The notes under the pieces were generated by a model that was not told the origin of the DNA, did not search any database, and saw only the letters and a list, made by a program, of their open reading frames with translations. Of a stretch of DNA of 64,000 nt, positions 576 to 13,417 are shown piece by piece; position 1 is the stretch's first letter; the number at the start of each line of letters is the position of its first letter. Source of the DNA: a phage. The position numbers and the translations under genes were made by a program. The DNA lies in the NCBI GenBank assembly GCA_019338205.1, contig GCA_019338205.1_4761.1. The stretch is one strand, 5' to 3'.

Positions 576-1571
576 TTAGAACTCAAACAATACAGAAACA
601 AGTTCTGTTTGATCTAATGACCGAACGATAGGTTGTCGGTTTTCCATGTAGATCATTTCGCCTGAGTGTGGCTCTAAGTCTTGCGGTCGGTACTTATCTT
701 TGACCGCTTTAACGTCTGGATCGCTAGGGCGTGCTTTCTTTTCCAATGGGTTAAGGATAATGCTTAACTGACGGAAACCAGTATTACCCACTAACGCGGT
801 AGTTGGGAATTGCGCAGAGTCCATATAAGCCTGAAAACGCAAAGTTACTACTTTCAGCCGATAAAGCAGATTATAGTCATTATACCAGGTGATCACATTG
901 TCATAGCCCCAACGCGCCGGATCTTGTCGCAGTTCATCGGGGAACGGTACAACAATATGTTCATTGGTGCAACGGTTGATCGCCGCATCAGGTGGAATTG
1001 TGTACAGATATTCCCAACGATACCCATCACCCATATCAATAGAATCGCCCTTTCCTACAGGTGGCGCAATTGATTCATGAGTAGGTGTCCACTTTCCGCC
1101 CAACTTCAAACACTCTACTTTAGCGTCAATGCTTGAAATCGAGCAGTAACCGCGATCAGGAACATCGGTTACGCGATACACCATCCAGCCGCTACCAACA
1201 TCAGTTCGGTTATATGGTGCTGAGTTTACGACAACAATGTCATTGATAAAGAACGTGCGCGGGTTATCCTGTCCGGTATCACCCCAGTCTTTACGAGGGA
1301 TAACCGCATCAAGAAGTGATTTGTTAATCTTAACCGCCCCCATCATATGGGTCCACATGTCAACAACACCAGCCGTTGAATCGGTCGGATAAGGTGGGGC
1401 AAAGCCCACCTCTTTTTCGTTTTCTGACCACGGCTCCGAACGTCCAAACGTTCCATAAATTGTAATTTGATTTGCTCCATCGCCTACAGAATTATAGAAA
1501 TTCAGAAGTTTTTCCGTTCTGAATTGACTAGTAATGATTGAGCGATAGATCACACTATTTTCATTAGCCAT
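576..1571 (-). CDS. 8: baseplate wedge protein gp8
   Basis: 331 aa versus T4 gp8 334 aa; position after gene 7 in conserved order 53-5-6-7-8; start overlaps gene 7 stop. Confidence 0.75.
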   Translation of the reverse strand: MANENSVIYRSIITSQFRTEKLLNFYNSVGDGANQITIYGTFGRSEPWSENEKEVGFAPPYPTDSTAGVVDMWTHMMGAVKINKSLLDAVIPRKDWGDTGQDNPRTFFINDIVVVNSAPYNRTDVGSGWMVYRVTDVPDRGYCSISSIDAKVECLKLGGKWTPTHESIAPPVGKGDSIDMGDGYRWEYLYTIPPDAAINRCTNEHIVVPFPDELRQDPARWGYDNVITWYNDYNLLYRLKVVTLRFQAYMDSAQFPTTALVGNTGFRQLSIILNPLEKKARPSDPDVKAVKDKYRPQDLEPHSGEMIYMENRQPIVRSLDQTELVSVLFEF

Positions 1572-4500
1572 TAATTTTCCTCTGTGTCGGATTCTTCGGA
1601 TCGCGTGGATTCCCTATATTATCCTTCAACCGTTTATCTACAAGTTCACGGAACATAGAGAATGTTACCGCCGACTGGTCAAACAGTGGACTCATTGCAA
1701 ATCTTCGTTCGCTTGCTTTAAGTCCGTGGAACAATTCGCTGTTCTCCTGATCATATTCAGGGGGAACCGGAAATTCTTCACCAATTAAAGGTGAAGTCAA
1801 ATATAATGCTTTTCCGGTAAGCGGGTCAATCTTAATATTTCCATCAACATCAAGATCAGCAACACGATCAGGATACACGCTAGGCAATCCGCTGTCAAAC
1901 TTATAATTTTTCAGAGATTGAATTATAGTCTCGGTGTGCTTCATGCTCAACCCGCTGTTAATGAACATCGTAAGCAGGGTAACACCGATAAACCCAAAGC
2001 CGACAGGATGAACGAATCGCATTACATCATTTGCATAGCGCGAAACTGGCAATGCGCTTTTAATCTTCATGGTGTATTGGCTTCGTGAGCGGTTGATATA
2101 GTCGATTGAACTACTCAACAACTCTTTACCACGCACACCAACAAGGATCATCCCTTCAAACGCTGTTTTCTCTGATTTGATCACTTGACCTTCTTCGAAC
2201 CGCCCGATCAGGTTATGAATGGTTACTCGCCAGCGTAGGCGACCACCTTCATATTCCCTTTCAAGATACGTCACGTTAGCCCGTCCGGTTGGAGTATAAA
2301 TCGTGCGACCTACGATATCCTCGTCAATGTTCGTTGAACTAACAACAATATCATACTCTAGTCCGGCTTGTGATTCAACCTCAATTTCCACATCTTCATT
2401 ATAAAGTAACTTAAACAAGAACTTATAAGAAGCCTCCACGCCCTTAGTGGAATAAAAATCTGATTTGCGGGATTCAAAGAATCTTACTACCGCATCTCGC
2501 TTGTTTTTATCTGCATAGATGTTTCGTTTGTTCATCTCTGACCAAAGATACTCATATGCATCTTGCTCGCGTGGATATTTGTTTTTAATCAGATTTTTTA
2601 GTTTATTATAATATGTTCCTGAACCATCACTTAAGAATTGCAGATAATATTCAGAGAATTTTCTGAAATTTTCGTTCTCAAGCAAAAAGCTATCCGGTGT
2701 CATCTTATTCAGTAAAGGCCGCAAATCTGGATCTTGCTCTCGATCGTAGTGAACCGGAACCCAGGGAACCTCTCGGACCTGATTTTGCAGTTCAGCAACA
2801 AATGCTACATTTGTAGGCTTCCAATATACACCAACCTGATCACGAACGCGATAGTTAAATTGATAGAATCCTATGATCTCTCCTGTGTTTTTATGGAACA
2901 TTACACCGGATGCATATTGTTTGAATCCTTCAAATTTAACATTGTTAAGATAACAGGTCACGGTCCCTTTATCATAAACTTCTCGGTTGACCCTATTTTG
3001 GTCAAGAATGCCAGATGTATCAACTTCTTGAGTGTAGATAACCTCTGGATAAACAACCAACGGGCGATTATCATTTGTGATCCACACACGGACACCGTTT
3101 CGACGCATCCATGTATAATCGGCCTCATTATAATACGCTTGCGGTCCTAACTCCCAAATACGCAAATCATCATAACTTGCTCTGAAAGTAGTTTGATGTA
3201 TTTTCTTATCAGTTAGATAAGTTGGCTCCTGAGAATATTTTACAGCTTCGCCCAATTCATATTTCGCGGCAGTTTCTGGATCAGGTAAAATGCTTTCGAA
3301 GTGATGATTATAATGGCTTATGAACACCTCATCACCATTGGTTGACATATTACTGAACCCATGCTGAATATATTCCCTTTCCTGCGGAGTGTTGCCAAAT
3401 ACTCTCTGAAAAGACAGACCATCACTCCCTATCAAGTATACACCCGCATCATCTGACGGAACAACGTTTTCTGGTTTAGTTGGATCTTGATAACGCTGTT
3501 TAACTTCACCAGTAACAAATACAAGCAATTTACCGTCGATCACATCCATTTTCTGAATGACAGCTTTATCATTTCCTGTTACTCGAATAACATCAGGATC
3601 GAATATTTTTTCGCCAAACGTAGGCGAACCCTGTACGGTATCAACTGGAGTATTCTTAAGACGAATCCGGCGAATAACATCCTTAGCACCAACCCACAAA
3701 TAGTCATCACTACATGCCATAGCTTCGGCGTATTTTGTGGTGTCCCCTGTTAATCTGGAAAATACACCAAAGACCTCAACGTCAAAGCCTAAATCGTTCT
3801 CGTCACCAACCTTTGCAAAAGTGATCGTATCATCACTAAATCGAACATCGTCCGCGCTCCATCGAGTATCGCTCGCTTGTCGTCCGTAAAAGATTCGATC
3901 ATATCCTAAAACGTAAGTAGTGGTTTTAGACTGATAAACGCATGTACGGGAAACCGGATTGCCTACACGGTCATTAAAAGCCTTGTATGCTTTCCATGAT
4001 TGGCCTTTATCGTTCGACACCTTCACAATCGGCTGGAACCGTTCGAAAAGGTACAAAACACCGTTCATTTCCGCTAACATAGTGCGGTTTATATCAGTAC
4101 AAACTTTTTCTATGTGGTCCTGTATTTCATGAAAGTTCTCATCAACTACAATGTAGTTTGAGATATTTGTCATGTTTGCATATTCAGGACTAAAGACAAA
4201 ATCTTCCTTCATCAATGATGCTTGAATCAGGTCAGTATTAAACTTGACATACTCTCGATTATCGTATGTAAATTTTTCCTTTATAAACTCGTTTGCAAGG
4301 TTGAACTCTCGCATCATAGAAAAATTATATGCGTTTGTTTTAAATGTCTGAAACTCTTCTGTCTCAACCCATTTACTTTGTTCAAATCCTTCTGCGGCTA
4401 CTGCTACACGAAACTTGTAATAATATTCTGGAAAAAGGTTTTTATCCTCAAACCAGTTTTGGTCGGCAGTATATCCCAGGTTTACCCAGCTTAACTCATC

Positions 4501-4650
4501 GACGGGGATGATCTCCCCGTCTCGTGTTCTGGTTTCGGCTAACTCCACAAAATAAAAGAAGTTTTCGCCTACGTCATCCCATGTGATATACGCCTGATTA
4601 GCAGACAATTTTTCTATTGTCAAGCTAGTTACACTAGGCGCTTTAATCAT
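1564..4650 (-). CDS. 7: baseplate wedge protein gp7
   Basis: 1028 aa versus T4 gp7 1032 aa; synteny between genes 6 and 8; overlapping stop/start. Confidence 0.8.
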   Translation of the reverse strand: MIKAPSVTSLTIEKLSANQAYITWDDVGENFFYFVELAETRTRDGEIIPVDELSWVNLGYTADQNWFEDKNLFPEYYYKFRVAVAAEGFEQSKWVETEEFQTFKTNAYNFSMMREFNLANEFIKEKFTYDNREYVKFNTDLIQASLMKEDFVFSPEYANMTNISNYIVVDENFHEIQDHIEKVCTDINRTMLAEMNGVLYLFERFQPIVKVSNDKGQSWKAYKAFNDRVGNPVSRTCVYQSKTTTYVLGYDRIFYGRQASDTRWSADDVRFSDDTITFAKVGDENDLGFDVEVFGVFSRLTGDTTKYAEAMACSDDYLWVGAKDVIRRIRLKNTPVDTVQGSPTFGEKIFDPDVIRVTGNDKAVIQKMDVIDGKLLVFVTGEVKQRYQDPTKPENVVPSDDAGVYLIGSDGLSFQRVFGNTPQEREYIQHGFSNMSTNGDEVFISHYNHHFESILPDPETAAKYELGEAVKYSQEPTYLTDKKIHQTTFRASYDDLRIWELGPQAYYNEADYTWMRRNGVRVWITNDNRPLVVYPEVIYTQEVDTSGILDQNRVNREVYDKGTVTCYLNNVKFEGFKQYASGVMFHKNTGEIIGFYQFNYRVRDQVGVYWKPTNVAFVAELQNQVREVPWVPVHYDREQDPDLRPLLNKMTPDSFLLENENFRKFSEYYLQFLSDGSGTYYNKLKNLIKNKYPREQDAYEYLWSEMNKRNIYADKNKRDAVVRFFESRKSDFYSTKGVEASYKFLFKLLYNEDVEIEVESQAGLEYDIVVSSTNIDEDIVGRTIYTPTGRANVTYLEREYEGGRLRWRVTIHNLIGRFEEGQVIKSEKTAFEGMILVGVRGKELLSSSIDYINRSRSQYTMKIKSALPVSRYANDVMRFVHPVGFGFIGVTLLTMFINSGLSMKHTETIIQSLKNYKFDSGLPSVYPDRVADLDVDGNIKIDPLTGKALYLTSPLIGEEFPVPPEYDQENSELFHGLKASERRFAMSPLFDQSAVTFSMFRELVDKRLKDNIGNPRDPKNPTQRKING

Positions 4651-6551
4651 TGAGCAATTGCCTCCAGACTAATAGTTGTGTACTGAGGACGGAGATCGTT
4701 TTCAAACACGATCAAAGAACCGTCTTTAGTAAAGATGTTATCAGCAATCGGTTTAGCTATCAACTCAATATATGAACCAGTAAAGCGATCGCTATTGATA
4801 TTCAGTTTACCCAGATCCCATGAAATAAGGTCTTCATAATGCTGAACCTCTCCAACCTCAAAGTATAGGTCCGCACCGTCGATAACCTCTTTATCAAAAT
4901 CAGTGCCGGAATAGTGCGGTAAAGCGATTGCAGAACCAACAGGGAAAGGTCCAACCAGCAATTTAGCTAAACCGGATTCTTTGTTCATTTCTGTACTTAC
5001 ATAATGGATCGGATATTGCTTGTCGTCCTTTTCGAAGTTGAACGAACTAGACTTGATTCCGCTCTTATACTGGTTTAAAAACTTGATTCCGGCCATAGGT
5101 GCTTTATAGAAGTTGTCGATCTCTCGAACCATCTCGATTTCTGCACTAGAACCTATCACAGATACATCAGCTTTGTCAATACGAGCAAGCATTTTAGACT
5201 TACTAAATGTCTGGTTAAAAATTTCCACTTCGTCGGTATAATATGCATCAATCTGATCAATAACCGCACCGCGCAACCACTGCTCTGATTCTGACAAGTC
5301 ATTGATTGAATAGGAAACTTTAATATTCTGTTTAATATACAGATAGTTAGGGTCAATGATGCTCGGCGTGATAGGGGCAAGATTATATTTTGCCAGATAA
5401 TCCCGCATATCTTCTTTTTGAACAGTTGTCAAACGCAAGCCAGATTTAGGCTTAACAGCAACAAAAGCATAACCCGGTTTTTCTCGGTCGGTGAAACATT
5501 GTACCGCCTGAACAATACTACCAAAACGGCTAGACACAAAAGCCTCATAGTCGGAAGCAGTTACACAACGACGCTGAGATTCACGCATTACCGGAGCAAG
5601 TTCACGGATACGTTCGATTGATTCAGGATCACCACCACCATCTGCACCGACATAATCACGATCATTTGTCGGATTCTCAATAATTTTAACAATAGAGATA
5701 GATGCAAGGGTATCCGCATATGTAAAATTAACTGAACCGTTTGCTTCCGCGCCCTTAGTGCTAATATATTCGATAACAATATTAGCACCAGTTGACGGCT
5801 TAAGTCCACCAATATAATTTGCTTCCAGCGCCCCGCCAGCAGCAGATAAAGTTGATTCACCTTCACCAAAGAAGATTTCTGTATGACCGTCTACGGTTTC
5901 ACGCATATAGAAAATATTACTAGCGCCAGTTGCATTAACAATACTTTCTCGCGTCCAGTCTTTCCATTCAGCACCGTCTACCCACAACTTAACCTGAGCG
6001 CGGTCAATATCTGGATCGCGGATCAGAATTTGTTTCTTCGGATCAAATAACATTTCTGTACGAACAATACGACCTTGCGCGACTTTAAGCATAGGAGTAT
6101 ATAAACCATTTGAACCTAAAACGCTCACAACGTCTTCTGTAGTAACAAACGGATAAGACGTCTGGTGGTCCACACTTGCAATAAATTTAGTTCCTCGTGG
6201 GATTCGAATACTTGCCGGATTTCGCGGATGTGTTACGTGCAACATAATTGTAGTCGATGCACTAGTTTTACTTGCTGGCAAATATCCTAAATCTTGCGCG
6301 GCTTGAACAACTGAACTACGCTTAATTGCCGTTCTGATAAAAGATTCATATAGAGCGGCGTTGGCGAATTGCTGAATATAAAGGGTATTATATGCGAGCA
6401 AGTCCATCAATACGTTAATACCAGCACCATTAAAATCAAAATCTTTAAATTCTTCCTGGTTTCTCATCCAGTCTGTTAATGTGCTTTTAATTTCATCAAA
6501 CGTAGCAGCATTAAAAATATCAGGAATTTGTGTAATCTTTTGCTTTGTCAT
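4647..6551 (-). CDS. 6: baseplate wedge protein gp6
   Basis: 634 aa versus T4 gp6 660 aa; synteny downstream of 5.4. Confidence 0.8.
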
Positions 6552-6862
6552 TTTATGAATACCTTCGGTGATGCCATAGCGACGGTATCGCCACAGCTAA
6601 TACGATCTGCCATTTGAATTGCTTTCTTTCCGGTAACAAATACTTTCGGGGTACTGGCGACCGTAGTTCCCCCGTGTGTATCATAAGGCTTTGTTGTTTT
6701 TGTATGTGGTGTAATTGGGTCTCCTTCGACTAATACAGGGATACCCTCAACAAATACCTTAGATTGAGTTGCATTAATTATTGTCGGACCGTAATTACCA
6801 TGTCCAGTAGTTTTTGCTTTGTCATATGATAAACCAGCCATCAAAACCCCATCTTCATACAT
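6548..6862 (-). CDS. 5.4: gp5.4-like PAAR-repeat tail spike tip protein
   Basis: 104 aa, small beta-rich protein with PAAR-like G/P/H-rich sequence directly upstream of gene 6, as for T4 gp5.4. Confidence 0.65.
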
Positions 6863-7418
6863 CGTTTAATTTGTTAACTTTTGAATCTCTAGATAATGCA
6901 GCGGTGTTATAGGCAATCGCAGCGTCAATTTCATTATCAAATAGACCTAAACGGATTCGTTTTCCATTGGCTCTAATTCTAGCTTCCCACTTTTTGGAAT
7001 TTTTATTCCAATTAACACCAATATATGAAGATGTGCAATCGGATTGTTTATTTTGGTTGTACATTTGTTGAGTAACGGTTGCTGGTCTTAAATTGCTAAC
7101 TCGGTCGTCAAGGGAGTTTGTGTTAATATGATCTATTTGTAGTGGTTTTCTCGGAGTGTGTCCGTGATGCATATGATAAACAACATGAGACCTCTGAAAC
7201 TCTTTACCATCAACAGCAAGTCTCCAATATCTATATCCACATGGATTTATCTTCAATCCACCAACTAGACTTCCGGCTTTAGAACGTCCACGAGAGAACC
7301 TTCTATAAACCTTTCCGTCAACTTCATAAAATAGTTCATGTAGTCTATTATATAAAATTTCATCTTCTTTGGTGTAATGAATTACTTCAATCATATTATC
7401 CCTCACTTCTTCTAACAT
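6855..7418 (-). CDS. HNH homing endonuclease with C-terminal AP2 DNA-binding domain
   Basis: HNH motif (HMHHGH...IDHIN.N..DDR.SNLR) and AP2-like segment ([43 protein letters not shown]); true start probably internal ATG near 7394. Confidence 0.8.
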
Positions 7419-7965
7419 AATCTCTTAACTGTTTACTCCACACATCCCAATTTCCAAAAACGGTTTGAGTATAAACTTTCTCTATTGTGTGTTCGGTTAC
7501 TACCGGAGGCGGATTAGTTTCACCAGCACCCTCTCGGCTACTGGAACCACCACTATTTCCTTCACCAGAACCACCAGAAGACTCTGAAACAGATTGGATA
7601 TAGGTTAGGGTTACTTTATAAGTATAAACCTCCTGTAGACGTGTAGGAGCGTTAAAATAATATAGATCTGCGGTAGTTGGATCTGGTAAATCATCAAAAC
7701 TTCCGGCAGATTTTTTAATTCTATCTTTCGTTATATATTTAAGAGAATCCGCGCCAAGCGAAAAACTATCCAGATACTCACCAGATATTTTAGTTTCTTC
7801 AACGGTAACGCCCTTATTAGGGCGATACTCGCTGATCTTAAACTCTTTAATCGTGTATGTGGTATTTGCATCTGGTGGCGTTGCTTTATAAGAGAACACC
7901 ACCTCAAAGATTTCTCGCTCGCTGATATCCTCCAATTTTGAACTCATCGGAAGAATTTCAACCAT
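7396..7965 (-). CDS. gp5.1-like hypothetical protein
   Basis: 189 aa ORF immediately downstream of gene 5 on same strand; position corresponds to T4 5.1. Confidence 0.45.
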   Translation of the reverse strand: MVEILPMSSKLEDISEREIFEVVFSYKATPPDANTTYTIKEFKISEYRPNKGVTVEETKISGEYLDSFSLGADSLKYITKDRIKKSAGSFDDLPDPTTADLYYFNAPTRLQEVYTYKVTLTYIQSVSESSGGSGEGNSGGSSSREGAGETNPPPVVTEHTIEKVYTQTVFGNWDVWSKQLRDYVRRSEG

Positions 7966-7973
7966 TAGTTACC

Positions 7974-9773
7974 TCACCCAAGATCAATACGGCTACCATC
8001 AATTTTAACTGTACCAGATGCAATATCTTTAACGCTTGCACCACAATTACGGGACCAGTCACCATTAACCTGATCTGATTTAGTGCCATTGACGGTCATA
8101 TTAAAATTACCCTCAACGGTTAAATCATAGTTACCTTTAATTGTTTCGGTAGTGTTACCCTCGATCATTAATTCAGCATTACCCTTGACGTTAGCCGTCA
8201 AATTGGCGTCAAGCTGCGCGGTAACATCACCTACAACATGCATATTTGCAGTACCTTCAACGGTCTGATTAACATTGCCACGAATAAATTCAGTGACGTT
8301 ACCATCAACGGTTTGCATCACATTACCCATATAATAAACTTGCGCGTCACCTTCAACAACAACTTGCAGATTGCCTTTAACGTTGACTTTGCGACCTTGC
8401 TTAACGATCAAATAATCATCACCTTCAATCTTTTCTACCCTCGTTCCGTCCGGTCTGGTTTCTTCAAATGTACCAGAAGGATGTTTACGATGATAACGCT
8501 CGTGAGAAGGAGTATCATCAATCTCGATAATATGACCGCTCTCTGACTCGTACACATGGTTATATGGATACCTTGCAGAATACGAACTCTTAGGCTCTTT
8601 AAACATGATTCGTGTGTCTTGTGGGGTAAACGGTGCTTCTGGGTCTTCTTCTGCTCTCTGCGTCTTATAGGCAGCAATACGGGCATTTCTCAAACGTGCT
8701 CTCGGATCATCTGAAACAGTTTCCTCTTTCTTAGGAGCAATTACGCCATATGATTCTAAGTTGCCAGTAAGAATAATTTTAGAAACACGGCTGGAGCGTC
8801 CTGGAGTTTGATTAGCCCATACTGATTGACGTAATCCATCATAGGCTTGTTTCCATTCTTCCGCTAACATCGCAGCAAGACTATTCTTAAATTTACCCAA
8901 TCCACCAACGCCCATTTGAAACGCCATATTTTCTAATGCCATACGACGTGAGGCATTACATTTATTATAGACAGGTGCAATTCGTGGATGTTTGCGCATA
9001 TCACGACGAGTCTTTTCTATATCGTCAGCAAATACTTTACTAACTTCTTCGGCGGTAAGTCTTCCGTTTGTAACTTCACGCCCTACCAGCTTAGAAAGTT
9101 CATTATTGATAATACCCAGATCACTGGTTTTCTTATAAATGATCAAATGCCCGATGCCTATTGTCGGATATCCTTCTGAATCAAGATACCATTTCTCGCG
9201 ATATCCCTCATCGCCCCGCAGCATTTTTTCTATTGTAAAATCAGGATTATCATCAACCGGAATTTGGTCTAATGGCTCGTCGTCTGGATTTACTGCAACT
9301 CCAGTGTTTTCATCTCGAATATAGACACTATCAGGTTTTGTTGTTTGTCCGGTTTCTGGGTTAATACCGCCACGAGCAAGAATATTAACATCATTACCAA
9401 TATAACGAGGATATGCACCAGAAGGGTCGCAAAAACCTTCTGTAGTGAGTGGTTTCTCTGTATATTGTCCGGCAATAGTACCCAGAATAACGCAGTTTAA
9501 ATAACGTTCATCTAAAGCCAAACCAAATACCATTGAACCTTCAACAATACCAGTAGGGCTTTGACCTATACCGGAGATCGCCGCGCTTGTAATATCTTGT
9601 ACTGGCGTAATCCATAATAGATCTTCGGTTGGAAGACCTTGAATGTCACCGTGTGCGGATAGCGAAGGATGTATACCATGAATCCTAACCTGAACACGCC
9701 CCAGCATTAATGGGTCTTCCCTGTTTTCTACAATTCCGGTAAACCATTTAACGGAGTTATTAAACATTAGCAT
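7974..9773 (-). CDS. 5: baseplate hub / tail-associated lysozyme gp5
   Basis: 599 aa; T4-lysozyme-like motif DSEGYPTIGIGHLI; C-terminal beta-helix repeats (VxGxxxxx); N-terminal OB-fold region; T4 gp5 is 575 aa. Confidence 0.9.
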   Translation of the reverse strand: MLMFNNSVKWFTGIVENREDPLMLGRVQVRIHGIHPSLSAHGDIQGLPTEDLLWITPVQDITSAAISGIGQSPTGIVEGSMVFGLALDERYLNCVILGTIAGQYTEKPLTTEGFCDPSGAYPRYIGNDVNILARGGINPETGQTTKPDSVYIRDENTGVAVNPDDEPLDQIPVDDNPDFTIEKMLRGDEGYREKWYLDSEGYPTIGIGHLIIYKKTSDLGIINNELSKLVGREVTNGRLTAEEVSKVFADDIEKTRRDMRKHPRIAPVYNKCNASRRMALENMAFQMGVGGLGKFKNSLAAMLAEEWKQAYDGLRQSVWANQTPGRSSRVSKIILTGNLESYGVIAPKKEETVSDDPRARLRNARIAAYKTQRAEEDPEAPFTPQDTRIMFKEPKSSYSARYPYNHVYESESGHIIEIDDTPSHERYHRKHPSGTFEETRPDGTRVEKIEGDDYLIVKQGRKVNVKGNLQVVVEGDAQVYYMGNVMQTVDGNVTEFIRGNVNQTVEGTANMHVVGDVTAQLDANLTANVKGNAELMIEGNTTETIKGNYDLTVEGNFNMTVNGTKSDQVNGDWSRNCGASVKDIASGTVKIDGSRIDLG

Positions 9774-9784
9774 AATTAATCACC

Positions 9785-10339
9785 TTACACATCAGCCTTT
9801 TCCATTTCTCGAATGAATGCGTTAATAAATTGTTTAATTTGTGTAGGGTCTATGATCTTGATCTTGCGTCGTTCCTCATTGCGGAGGATCGCATCTTCCA
9901 GTGTGTCTACCGCCGATAATGCACCTTGAAACTGCAAATGACGATGATGAATATCCCCTTTATCATACCAATTGCTTGATCCTTTCGGATATTCTGTAAG
10001 ATTCCAATACTTGTTTCCGTCAATATCAACATGGTATAATACTTGATTTCCTCCTACATTTGCATATCGTTGTTCGGCTGATTCATATGCTGTCTCTTGA
10101 TCGGTGATCCAGTCATGAAACGGATCGTATACGTCATTAAGCATCAGCAAGATCCAGTAAAGTTGTTGGTTTCCGTATACTTCATATGCAACTTGTTCCG
10201 GTCGTGGACTACCTTGAATGTAATATGTTTGTATGTTATAATCAGAAATTATTGCGTTGAAATATGCGCGGTAATTGCGCACAATGTCAGTAATCATCTT
10301 GCCGTTGTATTCAATGGCAGGGAAGAAAGAAAAGAGCAT
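9785..10339 (-). CDS. 53: baseplate wedge protein gp53
   Basis: 184 aa; N-terminus MLFSFFPAIEY resembles T4 gp53 (MLFTFFDPIEY); directly upstream of gene 5. Confidence 0.8.
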   Translation of the reverse strand: MLFSFFPAIEYNGKMITDIVRNYRAYFNAIISDYNIQTYYIQGSPRPEQVAYEVYGNQQLYWILLMLNDVYDPFHDWITDQETAYESAEQRYANVGGNQVLYHVDIDGNKYWNLTEYPKGSSNWYDKGDIHHRHLQFQGALSAVDTLEDAILRNEERRKIKIIDPTQIKQFINAFIREMEKADV

Positions 10340-10371
10340 TTTATCACCCTCAATTGATAAATAGTATTATG

Positions 10372-10379
10372 TATTTATA
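10372..10379 (-). promoter_or_regulatory. T4-type late promoter TATAAATA for the 53-5-6-7-8 operon
   Basis: exact TATAAATA on minus strand about 33 nt upstream of gp53 ATG. Confidence 0.6.
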
Positions 10380-10394
10380 ATAAAGGGTGCTAAA

Positions 10395-11090
10395 ATGGAC
10401 TATCAAAAACATTATGATCGATTAATTGAACGCGCAAAGCATAGAACGCTTGAAGGATATAAAGAAAAACATCATATTATTCCTCGTTGTATGGGAGGCG
10501 ATGATAGTCCAGAAAATATAGTTGAGTTAACGGGGTCTGAACATTTTGTTGCTCATCAACTTTTAGCAAAAATGCATCCAACACATCACGGAATTGTACA
10601 TGCGGCGAAAATATTGATGGGGTCTACCAACTATAACAATAAACAATTTGAGTGGGTAAGAAAACTTGCGGTCGAGACTTCAAGAAAATTTCATACAGGA
10701 AGAAAAAGATCCGAAGAGACTAGACGCAGAATATCAGAAGCAACTAAAGGAAAGAGAAAAGGAATTAAATTATCTGAGGAACATCGACAGAAATTATCTG
10801 CTTCATTAAAAGGTAGAGTGTTTACAGAAGAACATAAAAGAAATATTGCGTCAAGAGAAATTACACAAGAATGGAGAGACAACATCTCTAAAGCGGGTAA
10901 GGGTAGAAAGTTGTCACAAGAAAACGTAGAGAAATGGAAACGTATTCATAACACGCCAGAAATGAAACAAAAATATAGTGAATTGTCAAAGTCTCGTCCG
11001 TATTTCACCTGTCCTCATTGTGAAAAAACAGCCAATCAGGGAAATTATGTTAGATGGCATGGTGACAACTGCAAGAAGAAGGTGGTATAA
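10395..11090 (+). CDS. HNH homing endonuclease with NUMOD3-like repeats
   Basis: HHIIPRCMGGDDSPENIVELTGSEHFVAH HNH motif; repeated GRKRSEETRRRIS / GIKLSEEHRQKLS modules; C-terminal CxxC...CxxxxxC. Confidence 0.8.
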   Translation: MDYQKHYDRLIERAKHRTLEGYKEKHHIIPRCMGGDDSPENIVELTGSEHFVAHQLLAKMHPTHHGIVHAAKILMGSTNYNNKQFEWVRKLAVETSRKFHTGRKRSEETRRRISEATKGKRKGIKLSEEHRQKLSASLKGRVFTEEHKRNIASREITQEWRDNISKAGKGRKLSQENVEKWKRIHNTPEMKQKYSELSKSRPYFTCPHCEKTANQGNYVRWHGDNCKKKVV

Positions 11091-11563
11091 TGGGTAATTG
11101 CAACACATATAAGGGTAAATATAGACCTGAAAACCCGGAGAAGTATAAAGGCGACCTGAAAAAAATCGTCTACAGGTCAAGTTGGGAATTACATATAATG
11201 AAATTTTTAGACCGCAATCCTAGAGTTGCAAAATGGGGATCTGAGACCGTAGTAATTCCTTATGAGTCATCAACAGACGGAAAAAGACACAGATACTTTA
11301 TGGATTTTTACGTTAAGTTTGATGATGGCAAGGAGCATTTATGGGAAGTTAAACCAGCTAAAGAGACAAGGCCACCGGAAAAGCCAAAAAGAATGACCGC
11401 GAAGACAAAGCAACGATATATGCATGAAGTATGGACATACACAAAAAATACTGAAAAATGGTTAGCTGCCGTGAAATTATGCCAAAAGCATAACATGGAG
11501 TTTAAGATCATAACCGAACATGCATTAAAGAAAGTGTTTGGCTTTAAAGGGCTTAACAAATAG
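11090..11563 (+). CDS. 4: head completion protein gp4 (PD-(D/E)XK-like fold)
   Basis: 157 aa versus T4 gp4 150 aa; divergent from gene 53 as in T4; motif FMDFYV...LWEVKP. Confidence 0.55.
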   Translation: MGNCNTYKGKYRPENPEKYKGDLKKIVYRSSWELHIMKFLDRNPRVAKWGSETVVIPYESSTDGKRHRYFMDFYVKFDDGKEHLWEVKPAKETRPPEKPKRMTAKTKQRYMHEVWTYTKNTEKWLAAVKLCQKHNMEFKIITEHALKKVFGFKGLNK

Positions 11564-11574
11564 AGGATAATATT

Positions 11575-12396
11575 ATGAGCGTATTTGAAATAATCACAGA
11601 AGACGAAAAGCCGTCTCCCCAAAAACGAAAGTCTAAACAGTGGGTCGAATTGGGTGTAGAATTTGCGAAAGCAAAAGCCAAAGGCATGACAGCTAAAGCA
11701 TTTGCAGATTCTAAGGGAATAGCCTATGCGACTTTCACTAAAAGTATGTCTCGTTATGCCAGCGAAATTAAAACAGCAATAGAAGTTGAAAAACTAAAAG
11801 GGAAAAGTGCAAAGGGTCTCAATAAGCAGCAACGCGCAATGATGATGATTAATGATTTTCGTGCGTCTATGCGTGCTGTATCAAAGAGTCGTCCTAAAGA
11901 AAAATCACAGGAATGGTTTACTAAAACAATAAAAGCGGGAATAAAGGGACACCAGATTGTAAAACCGCAAGTAGGGCGAATCTATACCTTTATGTATGAT
12001 GCTAAGTATAAAGACACTTTGCCATATTGGGATGTTTTCCCACTGATCATTTGTCTGGGTGATTCTAAGACAAAGGCGGGTAATACTGTAATGCTGGGTC
12101 TTAACTTACACTATGTAACGCCTAAAGCCCGTCAGCAGTTTCTGGAAGCACTTTTAAAGCAATATGCATCTACTCCTACCTTGAGTAATAAAACACGCTT
12201 AAAAATCAAATGGAGCGATGTAAAAGGTATGCGTGGTAGTGACCACATGATCAAAGCATATCTACCGGGACACATTAAAACAAAACTTGTTGAGATTAGC
12301 CCGAAAGACTGGAGCAATATTATCTACCTTAACACATATAAATTTGTTTCTAAAGGTAAAAACTATGATGCAAGGAAGGTGTGGAAGGATGCTTAA
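11575..12396 (+). CDS. 2: DNA end protector protein gp2
   Basis: 273 aa versus T4 gp2 274 aa; synteny 4-2-3; SD GAGGAT. Confidence 0.55.
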   Translation: MSVFEIITEDEKPSPQKRKSKQWVELGVEFAKAKAKGMTAKAFADSKGIAYATFTKSMSRYASEIKTAIEVEKLKGKSAKGLNKQQRAMMMINDFRASMRAVSKSRPKEKSQEWFTKTIKAGIKGHQIVKPQVGRIYTFMYDAKYKDTLPYWDVFPLIICLGDSKTKAGNTVMLGLNLHYVTPKARQQFLEALLKQYASTPTLSNKTRLKIKWSDVKGMRGSDHMIKAYLPGHIKTKLVEISPKDWSNIIYLNTYKFVSKGKNYDARKVWKDA

Positions 12397-13417
12397 TATT
12401 AATTCCGTGGGGAGCAATCCCCACGTTTATTATCTTCGTCAACCGGAAGAAATAGAATACAGAGTAAACAAGGTAACAAAATCTCCTAGAGAATTTGCGG
12501 ATAAAGTTATTGAAAGGTGTAAACTTGTCGACCATACATTCTTAGGATTTTCTGGAGAATGGAAAGGAAAATTGACTAGATCTGTTATCCAATGCAATAA
12601 GCATGGAACTGTCTATGATGTTTCCAGTAATAGTTTCTATGCTAAAAAGGTTATTGTTGGTTGCCCTCAATGTAGGGGAGTTATGACAGAAGAGGAAGCA
12701 ACCAAATTCATTGAAGAAAAATGTAAAGATCTTGATTATGAATTTTTGGGATTTGTTGGTGGCTGGAAATCACAAATTACTAAGATGATTCTTAGATGCA
12801 AGAAACATGACCATATTTGGAAGAATACAAAGTTCTTTGATTTTAAAAATCATGGTACATGTGGTTGTAAGAAATGTGCGGCTGAACAATTTAAGACGGA
12901 ATATGTCGTTCCCGTGGAAGATGCACTATCTAGAATAGAAGATAAATGTAAAAAGTTAGGGTATGAATATATAGGTGTCGATGGTGAATGGATAGGTACT
13001 GCAAATTCATGGATAAAACTTAAATGTACAAAACATGACGCAGAATTTTCTGTAAGATATTGTACGTTCAACAGAAATGCTAAAGGGTGTCCGAAATGTA
13101 GTTCTTCTGGCTATCGTCCATCTGAGATGGGATATTTTTATATCCAGACGTTAGATGATAAATTTATAAAGTTTGGTGTAACCAATGAATTACCGGAAAC
13201 CAGAATGAAACAACATATGCAGAAATCTAAGTTTGTTCACAAACTTGTTTACGTCAAACAAAGTGTTGATGGCTGGATTCCGTGGGAACTTGAAAAGGAA
13301 ATAAAGAGAACTTATCATTGTGGCGTTGTTGATAAATCCATGTTGAAAGATGGATACACAGAAACTTTACCAATCACGGAACTTGATAACATAATTAAAT
13401 TAGCTGATACATATTAA
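12389..13417 (+). CDS. putative endonuclease: three tandem Zn-ribbon-like repeats plus C-terminal GIY-YIG/T5orf172-like domain
   Basis: three ~57-aa repeats each with CxKH...GCPxC; C-terminal GYFYIQ...KFGVT...R..QH; inserted between genes 2 and 3; start taken at ATG 12389. Confidence 0.55.
   Translation: MLNINSVGSNPHVYYLRQPEEIEYRVNKVTKSPREFADKVIERCKLVDHTFLGFSGEWKGKLTRSVIQCNKHGTVYDVSSNSFYAKKVIVGCPQCRGVMTEEEATKFIEEKCKDLDYEFLGFVGGWKSQITKMILRCKKHDHIWKNTKFFDFKNHGTCGCKKCAAEQFKTEYVVPVEDALSRIEDKCKKLGYEYIGVDGEWIGTANSWIKLKCTKHDAEFSVRYCTFNRNAKGCPKCSSSGYRPSEMGYFYIQTLDDKFIKFGVTNELPETRMKQHMQKSKFVHKLVYVKQSVDGWIPWELEKEIKRTYHCGVVDKSMLKDGYTETLPITELDNIIKLADTY

Follow-up and report, generated by a model that had tools for sequence, protein, structure and literature searches.

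Between gp5.1 and gp5.4 of the phage analyzed here lies an additional gene, X, in a late baseplate operon with the order gp53-gp5-gp5.1-X-gp5.4-gp6-gp7, which raises the question of what X encodes and whether it is a resident of this operon or a mobile element. The DNA examined (the window, a stretch of 64,000 nucleotides) belongs to a Krischvirus, an RB49-like coliphage, with no identical record; the closest match, at 98.2% over 24 kb, is FL37. A preceding sequence-only reading had placed an HNH-AP2 homing endonuclease at this position and regarded it as a probable mobile insertion. The placement is confirmed by the identity of the neighbors (gp5.1, PHROG 1168; gp5.4, a PAAR protein), and our analysis suggests that X, called HEG-A here, is very probably a free-standing homing endonuclease gene (HEG) of the HNH-AP2 class.

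Reading frame and domain architecture of HEG-A

The ORF listing gives 6855..7418 on the minus strand as the longest frame, of 187 aa. The real coding sequence is probably the shorter frame at 6855-7394 (Table 1), encoding an HNH-AP2 homing endonuclease of 179 aa, because three features converge on the ATG at 7394: the paralog HEG-C, which starts MKENVIHYTEED..., aligns from the Met encoded there; a Shine-Dalgarno sequence, GAGGGA (7399-7404), lies 6 nt upstream, at optimal spacing; and the annotated CDS is 540 nt in five other carrier phages. The ATG at 7418 lies within ancestral gp5.1 sequence (GATTATGT) that is also found in empty-site phages, and the extension it opens is probably not translated within HEG-A. 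Downstream, gp5.4 has a conserved start at 6841 (MAGLSYDK, as in RB49) and a CDS of 294 nt in RB49 and others. With these starts, 1 nt separates the gp5.1 stop from the HEG-A start, and 13 nt separate the HEG-A stop from the gp5.4 start. The overlaps with both neighbors that had been read from the sequence (23 nt and 8 nt) arise only if each gene is given its longest possible ORF, and are thus an artefact of longest-ORF calling. As regards annotation, the inserted cassette alone accounts for the differences between carriers and non-carriers in the C-terminus of gp5.1 and in the called start of gp5.4; these differences should not be taken as baseplate structural variation.

Owing to the 13-nt spacer, the window and KFS-EC also have an upstream ATG that is in frame with gp5.4 (window 6842-6862, minus strand), and the resulting 104-aa gp5.4 ORF is annotated in the KFS-EC records. 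The remaining HEG-A carriers have a 15-nt spacer, with the extension out of frame; the 104-aa reading is therefore probably an annotation artefact.

Table 1. Coordinates of the features discussed; positions refer to the window unless a phage locus or an allele span is given
Feature	Position or span	Strand	Basis or remarks
HEG-A CDS (probable)	6855..7394	(-)	179 aa + stop; ORF, carrier annotations, HEG-C alignment, Shine-Dalgarno sequence
Upstream extension of longest ORF (MLEEVRDN)	7395..7418	(-)	Overlaps gp5.1 3' end
N-terminal helix + beta-sheet, residues 1-69	7188..7394	(-)	AF2, profile, Foldseek
HNH (beta-beta-alpha-metal) motif	7062..7187	(-)	Pfam HNH_3, alignments
D88-H89	7128-7133	(-)	Within HNH motif; structural N101 after
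Q110	7065-7067	(-)	At position of I-HmuI metal ligand N96
AP2-type DNA-binding domain, residues 123-168 of 179 aa	6891..7028	(-)	Pfam, WRI1, Foldseek
gp5.1, upstream neighbor	7396..7965	(-)	PHROG 1168; last codons rewritten by insertion
gp5.4 PAAR spike-tip protein, downstream neighbor	6548..6841	(-)	97 aa; Pfam PAAR_motif
Inserted cassette	6851..7414	(-)	Replaces 5 nt, coding sense ACATA, of ancestral gp5.1 3' end
New gp5.1 C-terminal tail, cassette-supplied	7396..7414	(-)	RRSEG* for HRGV*; holds Shine-Dalgarno GAGGGA
HEG-B relic GGGGTTTTGA	6841..6850	(-)	Equals last 10 nt of HEG-B (E-G-F-stop); HEG-B C-terminus ...YKEGF*
Recoded gp5.4 5' block, codons 3-21	6779..6835	(-)	In public records: HEG-B carriers and KFS-EC only
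T4-type late promoter TATAAATA	10372..10379	(-)	Upstream of gp53 (9785-10339)
Empty allele	span 1941-1943 bp		45 records: RB49, Phi1, JSE, FL37, ELT3, kaaroe and others
HEG-A allele	span 2501-2503 bp		7 records: KFS-EC (two), MIZ4, MIZ5, G37-3, G5211, Makalu_003
HEG-B allele (246-aa HNH-AP2)	2750 bp		6 records: GEC-3S (two), W115, JEP8, Skers, G2494
HEG-B + HEG-C allele	3314 bp		1 record: Whisky
HEG-B cassette	W115, GEC-3S, G2494 loci 3342-4148; Whisky locus 3906-4712		Locus coordinates
HEG-C, 184-aa HNH-AP2	Whisky locus 3054-3608		Between gp5.4 and gp6; only Whisky among 59 records

The HNH-AP2 architecture proposed from the sequence proved right. Pfam HNH_3 matches residues 78-119 of the 187-aa ORF (E 2.4e-9; 37.1 bits against a cut-off of 24.8), Pfam AP2 matches residues 131-176 of the same ORF at 32.6 bits, just below the 33.3-bit cut-off, and PHROG 99, 'HNH endonuclease', is matched at E 1.6e-45. 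A phmmer comparison of HEG-A with Arabidopsis WRI1 gave 5.6e-6, and a family profile built from 21 sequences matched WRI1 (1e-16), TEM1 (2.3e-8) and ERF1 (3.6e-6), as well as I-HmuI (E 1.4e-12), residues 21-121 of which correspond to profile positions 28-122. The AlphaFold2 model of HEG-A has a mean pLDDT of 93.3. When it was compared with the PDB by Foldseek, the top match was I-HmuI (1u3e; probability 1.00, 89 columns), and AP2/ERF structures were matched as well, with 1gcc (AtERF1) superposing at a TM score of 0.77 and an rmsd of 1.9 Å over 61 columns, alongside 7et5 and 7wq5. Within the model, the beta-beta-alpha-metal fold is present as a strand-strand-helix arrangement at residues 86-112, and the AP2 sheet and helix as strands at 127-130, 135-142 and 145-152 followed by a helix at 155-169; residues 1-69 of the model resemble the N-terminal DNA-contacting region of I-HmuI. 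I-HmuI, a nicking enzyme of Bacillus phage SPO1, is the best match for residues ~28-120, and differs from HEG-A in being intron-encoded and in having a C-terminal helix-turn-helix/NUMOD region in place of AP2.

The putative active site is conserved with one exception. D88, H89, N101, L102 and R103 are invariant in the 21-homolog alignment, and the D-H...N-L-R pattern of HEG-A aligns with VVDH...TNLR of I-HmuI at the same spacing. In the HNH_3 class, an Asn (or His) metal ligand lies 21 residues after the catalytic His; in the I-HmuI structure, Asp74 and Asn96 reportedly bind the metal and His75 is said to act as the general base. The equivalent of Asn96 is Gln110 in every HEG-A copy. This substitution, at a position where I-HmuI and 130 of 135 related HNH motifs have Asn, counts toward a rival explanation, in which HEG-A is an inactive relic that once homed, is now catalytically dead, and moves by hitch-hiking on homologous recombination among co-infecting Krischviruses. 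We consider this unlikely. In the position tally, which covers 135 HNH motifs in 170 relatives, the other five motifs have Gln and no other residue occurs; these five include four other clusters, each less than 50% identical. Because Gln is thus the sole alternative to Asn and recurs in four other clusters, Gln110 looks like a tolerated variant that could provide an amide ligand, rather than decay.

On sequence and model evidence, HEG-A combines an HNH nuclease of the I-HmuI type with an AP2 domain, with cleavage activity presumed from its family. Among 1.84 billion protein representatives, no other cluster reaches 50% identity to its lineage, and HEG-A is 39-42% identical to paralogs elsewhere in Krischvirus genomes. 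A chance ORF or annotation artefact with no protein product draws on the start-codon ambiguity and nothing else; its probability is negligible, and it is already refuted by the strong domain matches, the high-confidence two-domain fold, the codon-aware substitutions described below, and a wider family of 110,728 library representatives at E<=1e-3.

The class of HNH-AP2 HEGs is well established: its definition goes back to Magnani et al. 2004 (as cited in PMC1524935, PMC2993671 and PMC10448857), members have been recorded for RB49 (ORF040c), JSE, RB43 and RB16 (PMC1524935, PMC2993671), and the class is placed alongside I-HmuI in group 2 of the His-Me fingers (PMC5714182) and treated for ICP1-like phages as well (PMC10448857). 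The HEGs of RB49, JSE, RB43 and RB16 share with HEG-A a free-standing organization, an N-terminal I-HmuI-type HNH_3 domain, a C-terminal AP2 domain, an uneven distribution even among closest relatives, and the phage genus. HEG-A differs from them in its insertion at gp5.1/gp5.4 and in having Gln for Asn at the metal-ligand position. Our literature search found no paper on HEG-A itself or on Krischvirus gp5.1/gp5.4 polymorphism; the Makalu paper remarks only on a varying number of HNH genes. HEG-A adds an uncharacterized lineage to the selfish phage genes of this class, which is well known and very large. A packaging-associated HNH protein, of the kind found beside terminases in HK97-like phages, was also considered for HEG-A, and is ruled out by location, by the HNH_3/I-HmuI subtype, and by presence and absence among relatives.

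Insertion junction and distribution of alleles

To define the insertion, junctions were read from a MAFFT alignment of the window with 18 loci (19 sequences). The empty allele reads, in coding sense, ...GAT TAT GTA CAT AGG GGT GTT TAA TGG CTG G..., with the gp5.1 stop and the gp5.4 start overlapping as TAATG and no intergenic gap; gp5.1 and gp5.4 are separate ORFs in the empty alleles. Across the nine empty-site loci aligned, the 36 nt spanning the insertion point are identical in 9/9. The cassette has clean ends relative to empty-site phages and substitutes for the last four codons of gp5.1. The description of HEG-A as inserted between conserved genes therefore holds as to the gp5.1/gp5.4 junction, and needs amending in that there is no gap at this junction and the cassette replaces the end of gp5.1. 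In MIZ4-type carriers, the ancestral GGGGTGTTTAATGGCTGG, comprising the gp5.4 ribosome-binding site and start, is kept downstream of the HEG-A stop. An Rfam scan of 6000-8500 (E<=1) returned no match, and no group I intron RNA; together with the separate flanking ORFs of the empty alleles, this places HEG-A outside an intron or intein.

A divergence in the 3' end of gp5.1 (AGTAAACAGTTA versus GCGCAGCAACTA) was at one stage taken as HEG-linked, from a comparison with RB49 only, and was rejected. This haplotype also occurs in the empty phages FL20, PTE-Eco09 and ECD7, and was therefore dropped as evidence for co-conversion or immunity.

The comparison with related phages that the earlier reading had proposed was carried out by megablast of 6000-8500, which retrieved 60 records at 95-99% identity, 59 of which span the gp5.1/gp5.4 junction and could be classed by span. 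Far from being universally present, HEG-A was found in 7/59 of these full-length Krischvirus records, and the site is empty in 45/59, including the nearest overall relatives of the window phage (FL37, ELT3 and kaaroe). A second HNH-AP2 gene, HEG-B, occurs in 7/59 records in total, at an insertion point ~25 nt from that of HEG-A. Both HEG-B (GEC-3S, W115, JEP8, Skers, G2494, Whisky) and HEG-C belong to the same family as HEG-A and occupy the same small operon region, with identities to HEG-A of 31% and 41%, respectively. Searching other genera for the junction with a 'distant' DNA comparison was of no help in classifying alleles. For one carrier, G37-3, the gp6 annotation consists of two CDS that overlap, 1150-1440 and 1403-3052 (locus 1150-3052), which suggests a frameshift or sequencing error in that record.

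Expression, mobility and selection

The late promoter motif upstream of gp53 (Table 1) is the only such motif upstream of HEG-A in the operon, with three matches in the window, and a scan of 6400-10500 for sigma-70 promoters and intrinsic terminators found nothing above shuffles. Since the sole late promoter precedes gp53 and no sigma-70-like promoter stands out, HEG-A is, as judged from these signals, a cassette that lacks a promoter and is read as part of the late structural transcript; its translation is probably coupled to that of gp5.1. Promoter-less organization has a precedent in T4 segC and six other T4 HEGs (PMC2988022). Moreover, segC, located between genes 5.1 and 5.3, resembles HEG-A in lying directly downstream of gp5.1 in the baseplate operon, in relying on an upstream transcript, and in having a start region that overlaps or is coupled to gp5.1 (PMC2988022). 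Unlike HEG-A, SegC belongs to the GIY-YIG family and has an activity shown experimentally, whereas that of HEG-A is assumed from its family. The presence of different nuclease families at the equivalent spot points to convergent use of this junction.

An RNA hairpin is predicted at 7365-7445 (minus strand; -13 kcal/mol, z -2.2, 5/200 shuffles), pairing GAUUAUGUUA with UAAUAUGAUU such that the HEG-A AUG lies in the stem and the Shine-Dalgarno sequence in the loop. Its significance is modest; it might conceivably damp HEG-A translation. No RNA structure was found in the HEG-A/gp5.4 spacer.

These features fit a homing cycle that can be proposed as follows. Late in infection, HEG-A would be transcribed by read-through of the gp53-gp5-gp5.1 transcript, and the 179-aa protein would be translated via coupling to the gp5.1 stop (TAA-T-ATG, with GAGGGA as Shine-Dalgarno sequence). 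The AP2 domain and N-terminal sheet would then bind the uninterrupted gp5.1/gp5.4 junction (coding sense ...GATTATGTACATAGGGGTGTTTAATGGCTGG...) of a co-infecting Krischvirus that lacks the HEG, and the I-HmuI-like HNH site (D88/H89/N101/Q110) would nick or cut near the junction. T4-type recombinational repair would copy the cassette, with adjacent flanks, into the broken genome (intronless homing with co-conversion), and the carrier would be immune, since the cassette splits the target site. Cleavage activity, target-site position and biased inheritance are here inferred by analogy.

Several observations bear on mobility. The carriers come from Korea, Russia, Germany and Nepal, and are scattered in neighbor-joining trees of both the left and the right flank. 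Between the window and KFS-EC, 87 positions differ over 5200-9200, with 0 differences over 6729-7491 (763 nt), one over 6502-7491, and 2-4.6% divergence outside the identical tract; at the 2.2% average divergence of the region, the chance of a 763-nt run with zero differences is ~5e-8. The precise junctions, the mosaic distribution in the flank trees and the local identity tract thus lend support to the earlier view of HEG-A as a mobile insertion. The left and right flank trees are incongruent, and recombination is pervasive in Krischvirus, so that general recombination alone could scatter an inert insert. This pervasive recombination, together with the low database frequency (7/59 records), also speaks for the inactive relic introduced above, as does a further observation: identity among carriers is 98.9% for HEG-A DNA, as against 98.8% for gp5.1, 98.3% for gp53 and 97.1-98.8% for the flanks, a marginal difference that gives no strong sign of a recent sweep. 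Because HEG-A identity is not clearly above that of the flanks, we claim spread, and not a recent sweep. Against the relic stands the tight zero-difference tract centered on HEG-A between genomes that otherwise diverge, as well as the state of the gene itself. All six HEG-A copies, including that of the window, are intact, with unchanged catalytic residues, and their 14 variable sites comprise 10 synonymous and 4 non-synonymous changes (pN/pS ~0.1, an estimate based on these 14 sites, with 6-7 carrier genomes in all). From this pattern of substitution, HEG-A is under purifying selection.

Purifying selection on the ORF would also be expected of a domesticated gene, acting in competitor exclusion, in cutting of satellite or host DNA, or as an AP2-mediated late-gene regulator. 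Co-option of HEG-derived domains is described both for conflicts between phages and satellites and for AP2 transcription factors (PMC10448857), and HEG-A is embedded in a late structural operon. We nevertheless regard domestication as highly improbable: most Krischviruses, the nearest relatives included, are without HEG-A; a different HEG sits at the same junction in other phages; a split site and a recoded flank belong to the anatomy of homing, as opposed to that of a conserved accessory gene; and marker exclusion is a by-product of homing in any case (PMC2988022). Free-standing homing therefore remains the reading that we prefer for HEG-A.

HEG-B, a chimeric allele and neighboring nuclease-like genes

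HEG-B encodes a protein with two AP2-like segments and is inserted 8 nt into gp5.4. Upstream of the gene, its cassette carries a GC-rich stem-loop (GGCGGGTGTCGATGCCCCGCC) and a late-promoter-like CATAAATA; at the other end, the HEG-B stop overlaps a rebuilt gp5.4 start (TGATG). In the HEG-B allele, 14 codons of gp5.4 are changed within codons 3-21, 12 of them synonymously, compared with one change in the other 76 codons. This recoding is probably HEG-B's own immunity or co-conversion footprint. A block search recovered the recoded block at >=98% identity in exactly the seven HEG-B and two KFS-EC records; in the five remaining HEG-A records and in every empty record, identity was <=84%.

The HEG-A stop is followed, in both the window and KFS-EC, by the spacer GGGGTTTTGA and then by the recoded gp5.4. 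HEG-A is thus found in two flank contexts, with either a wild-type gp5.4, or the HEG-B-linked recoded gp5.4 and a relic of HEG-B. Because this relic and the recoded gp5.4 lie next to HEG-A, the window/KFS-EC allele is, on alignment evidence, a fusion of HEG-A with the 3' end of a HEG-B allele, the join lying within a G-run, and the chimera implies recombination between HEG-A and HEG-B alleles. The identity tract, the scatter of carriers in the flank trees and the chimera with its HEG-B relic are footprints of gene conversion at the HEG-A locus. HEG-B phages retain the ancestral junction intact upstream of HEG-B, and MIZ4-type HEG-A phages retain an intact wild-type gp5.4 start; since the presumed site of each enzyme is intact in carriers of the other, either could in principle have initiated the exchange.

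Whether the window/KFS-EC allele is the footprint of one HEG superseding another at the same homing site seems to us evenly balanced. An allele of this kind is predicted to be immune to both enzymes, because the HEG-A site is split and the HEG-B site recoded. The occurrence of HEG-B and HEG-A at one locus parallels the replacement of mobC/mobE by SegH and Hef in T4 relatives (Sandegren et al. 2005, as cited in PMC2988022). If the supersession reading is true, the locus would provide a natural, tractable system for HEG-versus-HEG competition, and a natural test of Gln replacing Asn as an HNH metal ligand. Taken alone, HEG-A is of modest importance; the interest lies in the three-allele system and the HEG-A/HEG-B chimera. 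The gp5.1/gp5.4 junction appears as a recurrent landing pad, used by T4 segC (GIY-YIG), HEG-A and HEG-B, and public genomes hold every state of it: empty, HEG-A, HEG-B and the HEG-A/HEG-B chimera. As all of these states exist in public isolates, HEG competition and the evolution of a doubly immune allele are testable with existing phages.

Further nuclease-like genes were observed in the same part of the window. Between gp53 and gp4, a 231-aa ORF at 10395-11090 (plus strand) features an HNH motif (HHIIPRCMGGDD...ENIVELT..H) and a NUMOD3 repeat (Pfam 7.8e-7). In the alignment, PTE-Eco09 and MIZ2 share this insert, under the annotation 'endonuclease' or 'homing endonuclease', and RB49, FL20, KFS-EC and others lack it. 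By its sequence features, this ORF is a second polymorphic free-standing HEG, ~3 kb from HEG-A. Downstream of gp2, a 376-aa ORF at 12287-13417 (plus strand), the start of which overlaps the gp2 end, comprises repeated CapR-homology domains (PF21817, 8.7e-15) and a C-terminal GYFYIQ...FGVTN motif, and resembles T5orf172-type HEGs as described in PMC10448857. The gp4 head-completion protein (11090-11563, plus strand) is matched strongly by Pfam PF08722, the N-terminal domain of TnsA-like endonucleases (4.2e-21); here, a fold resembling that of nucleases occurs in a protein of structure or assembly.
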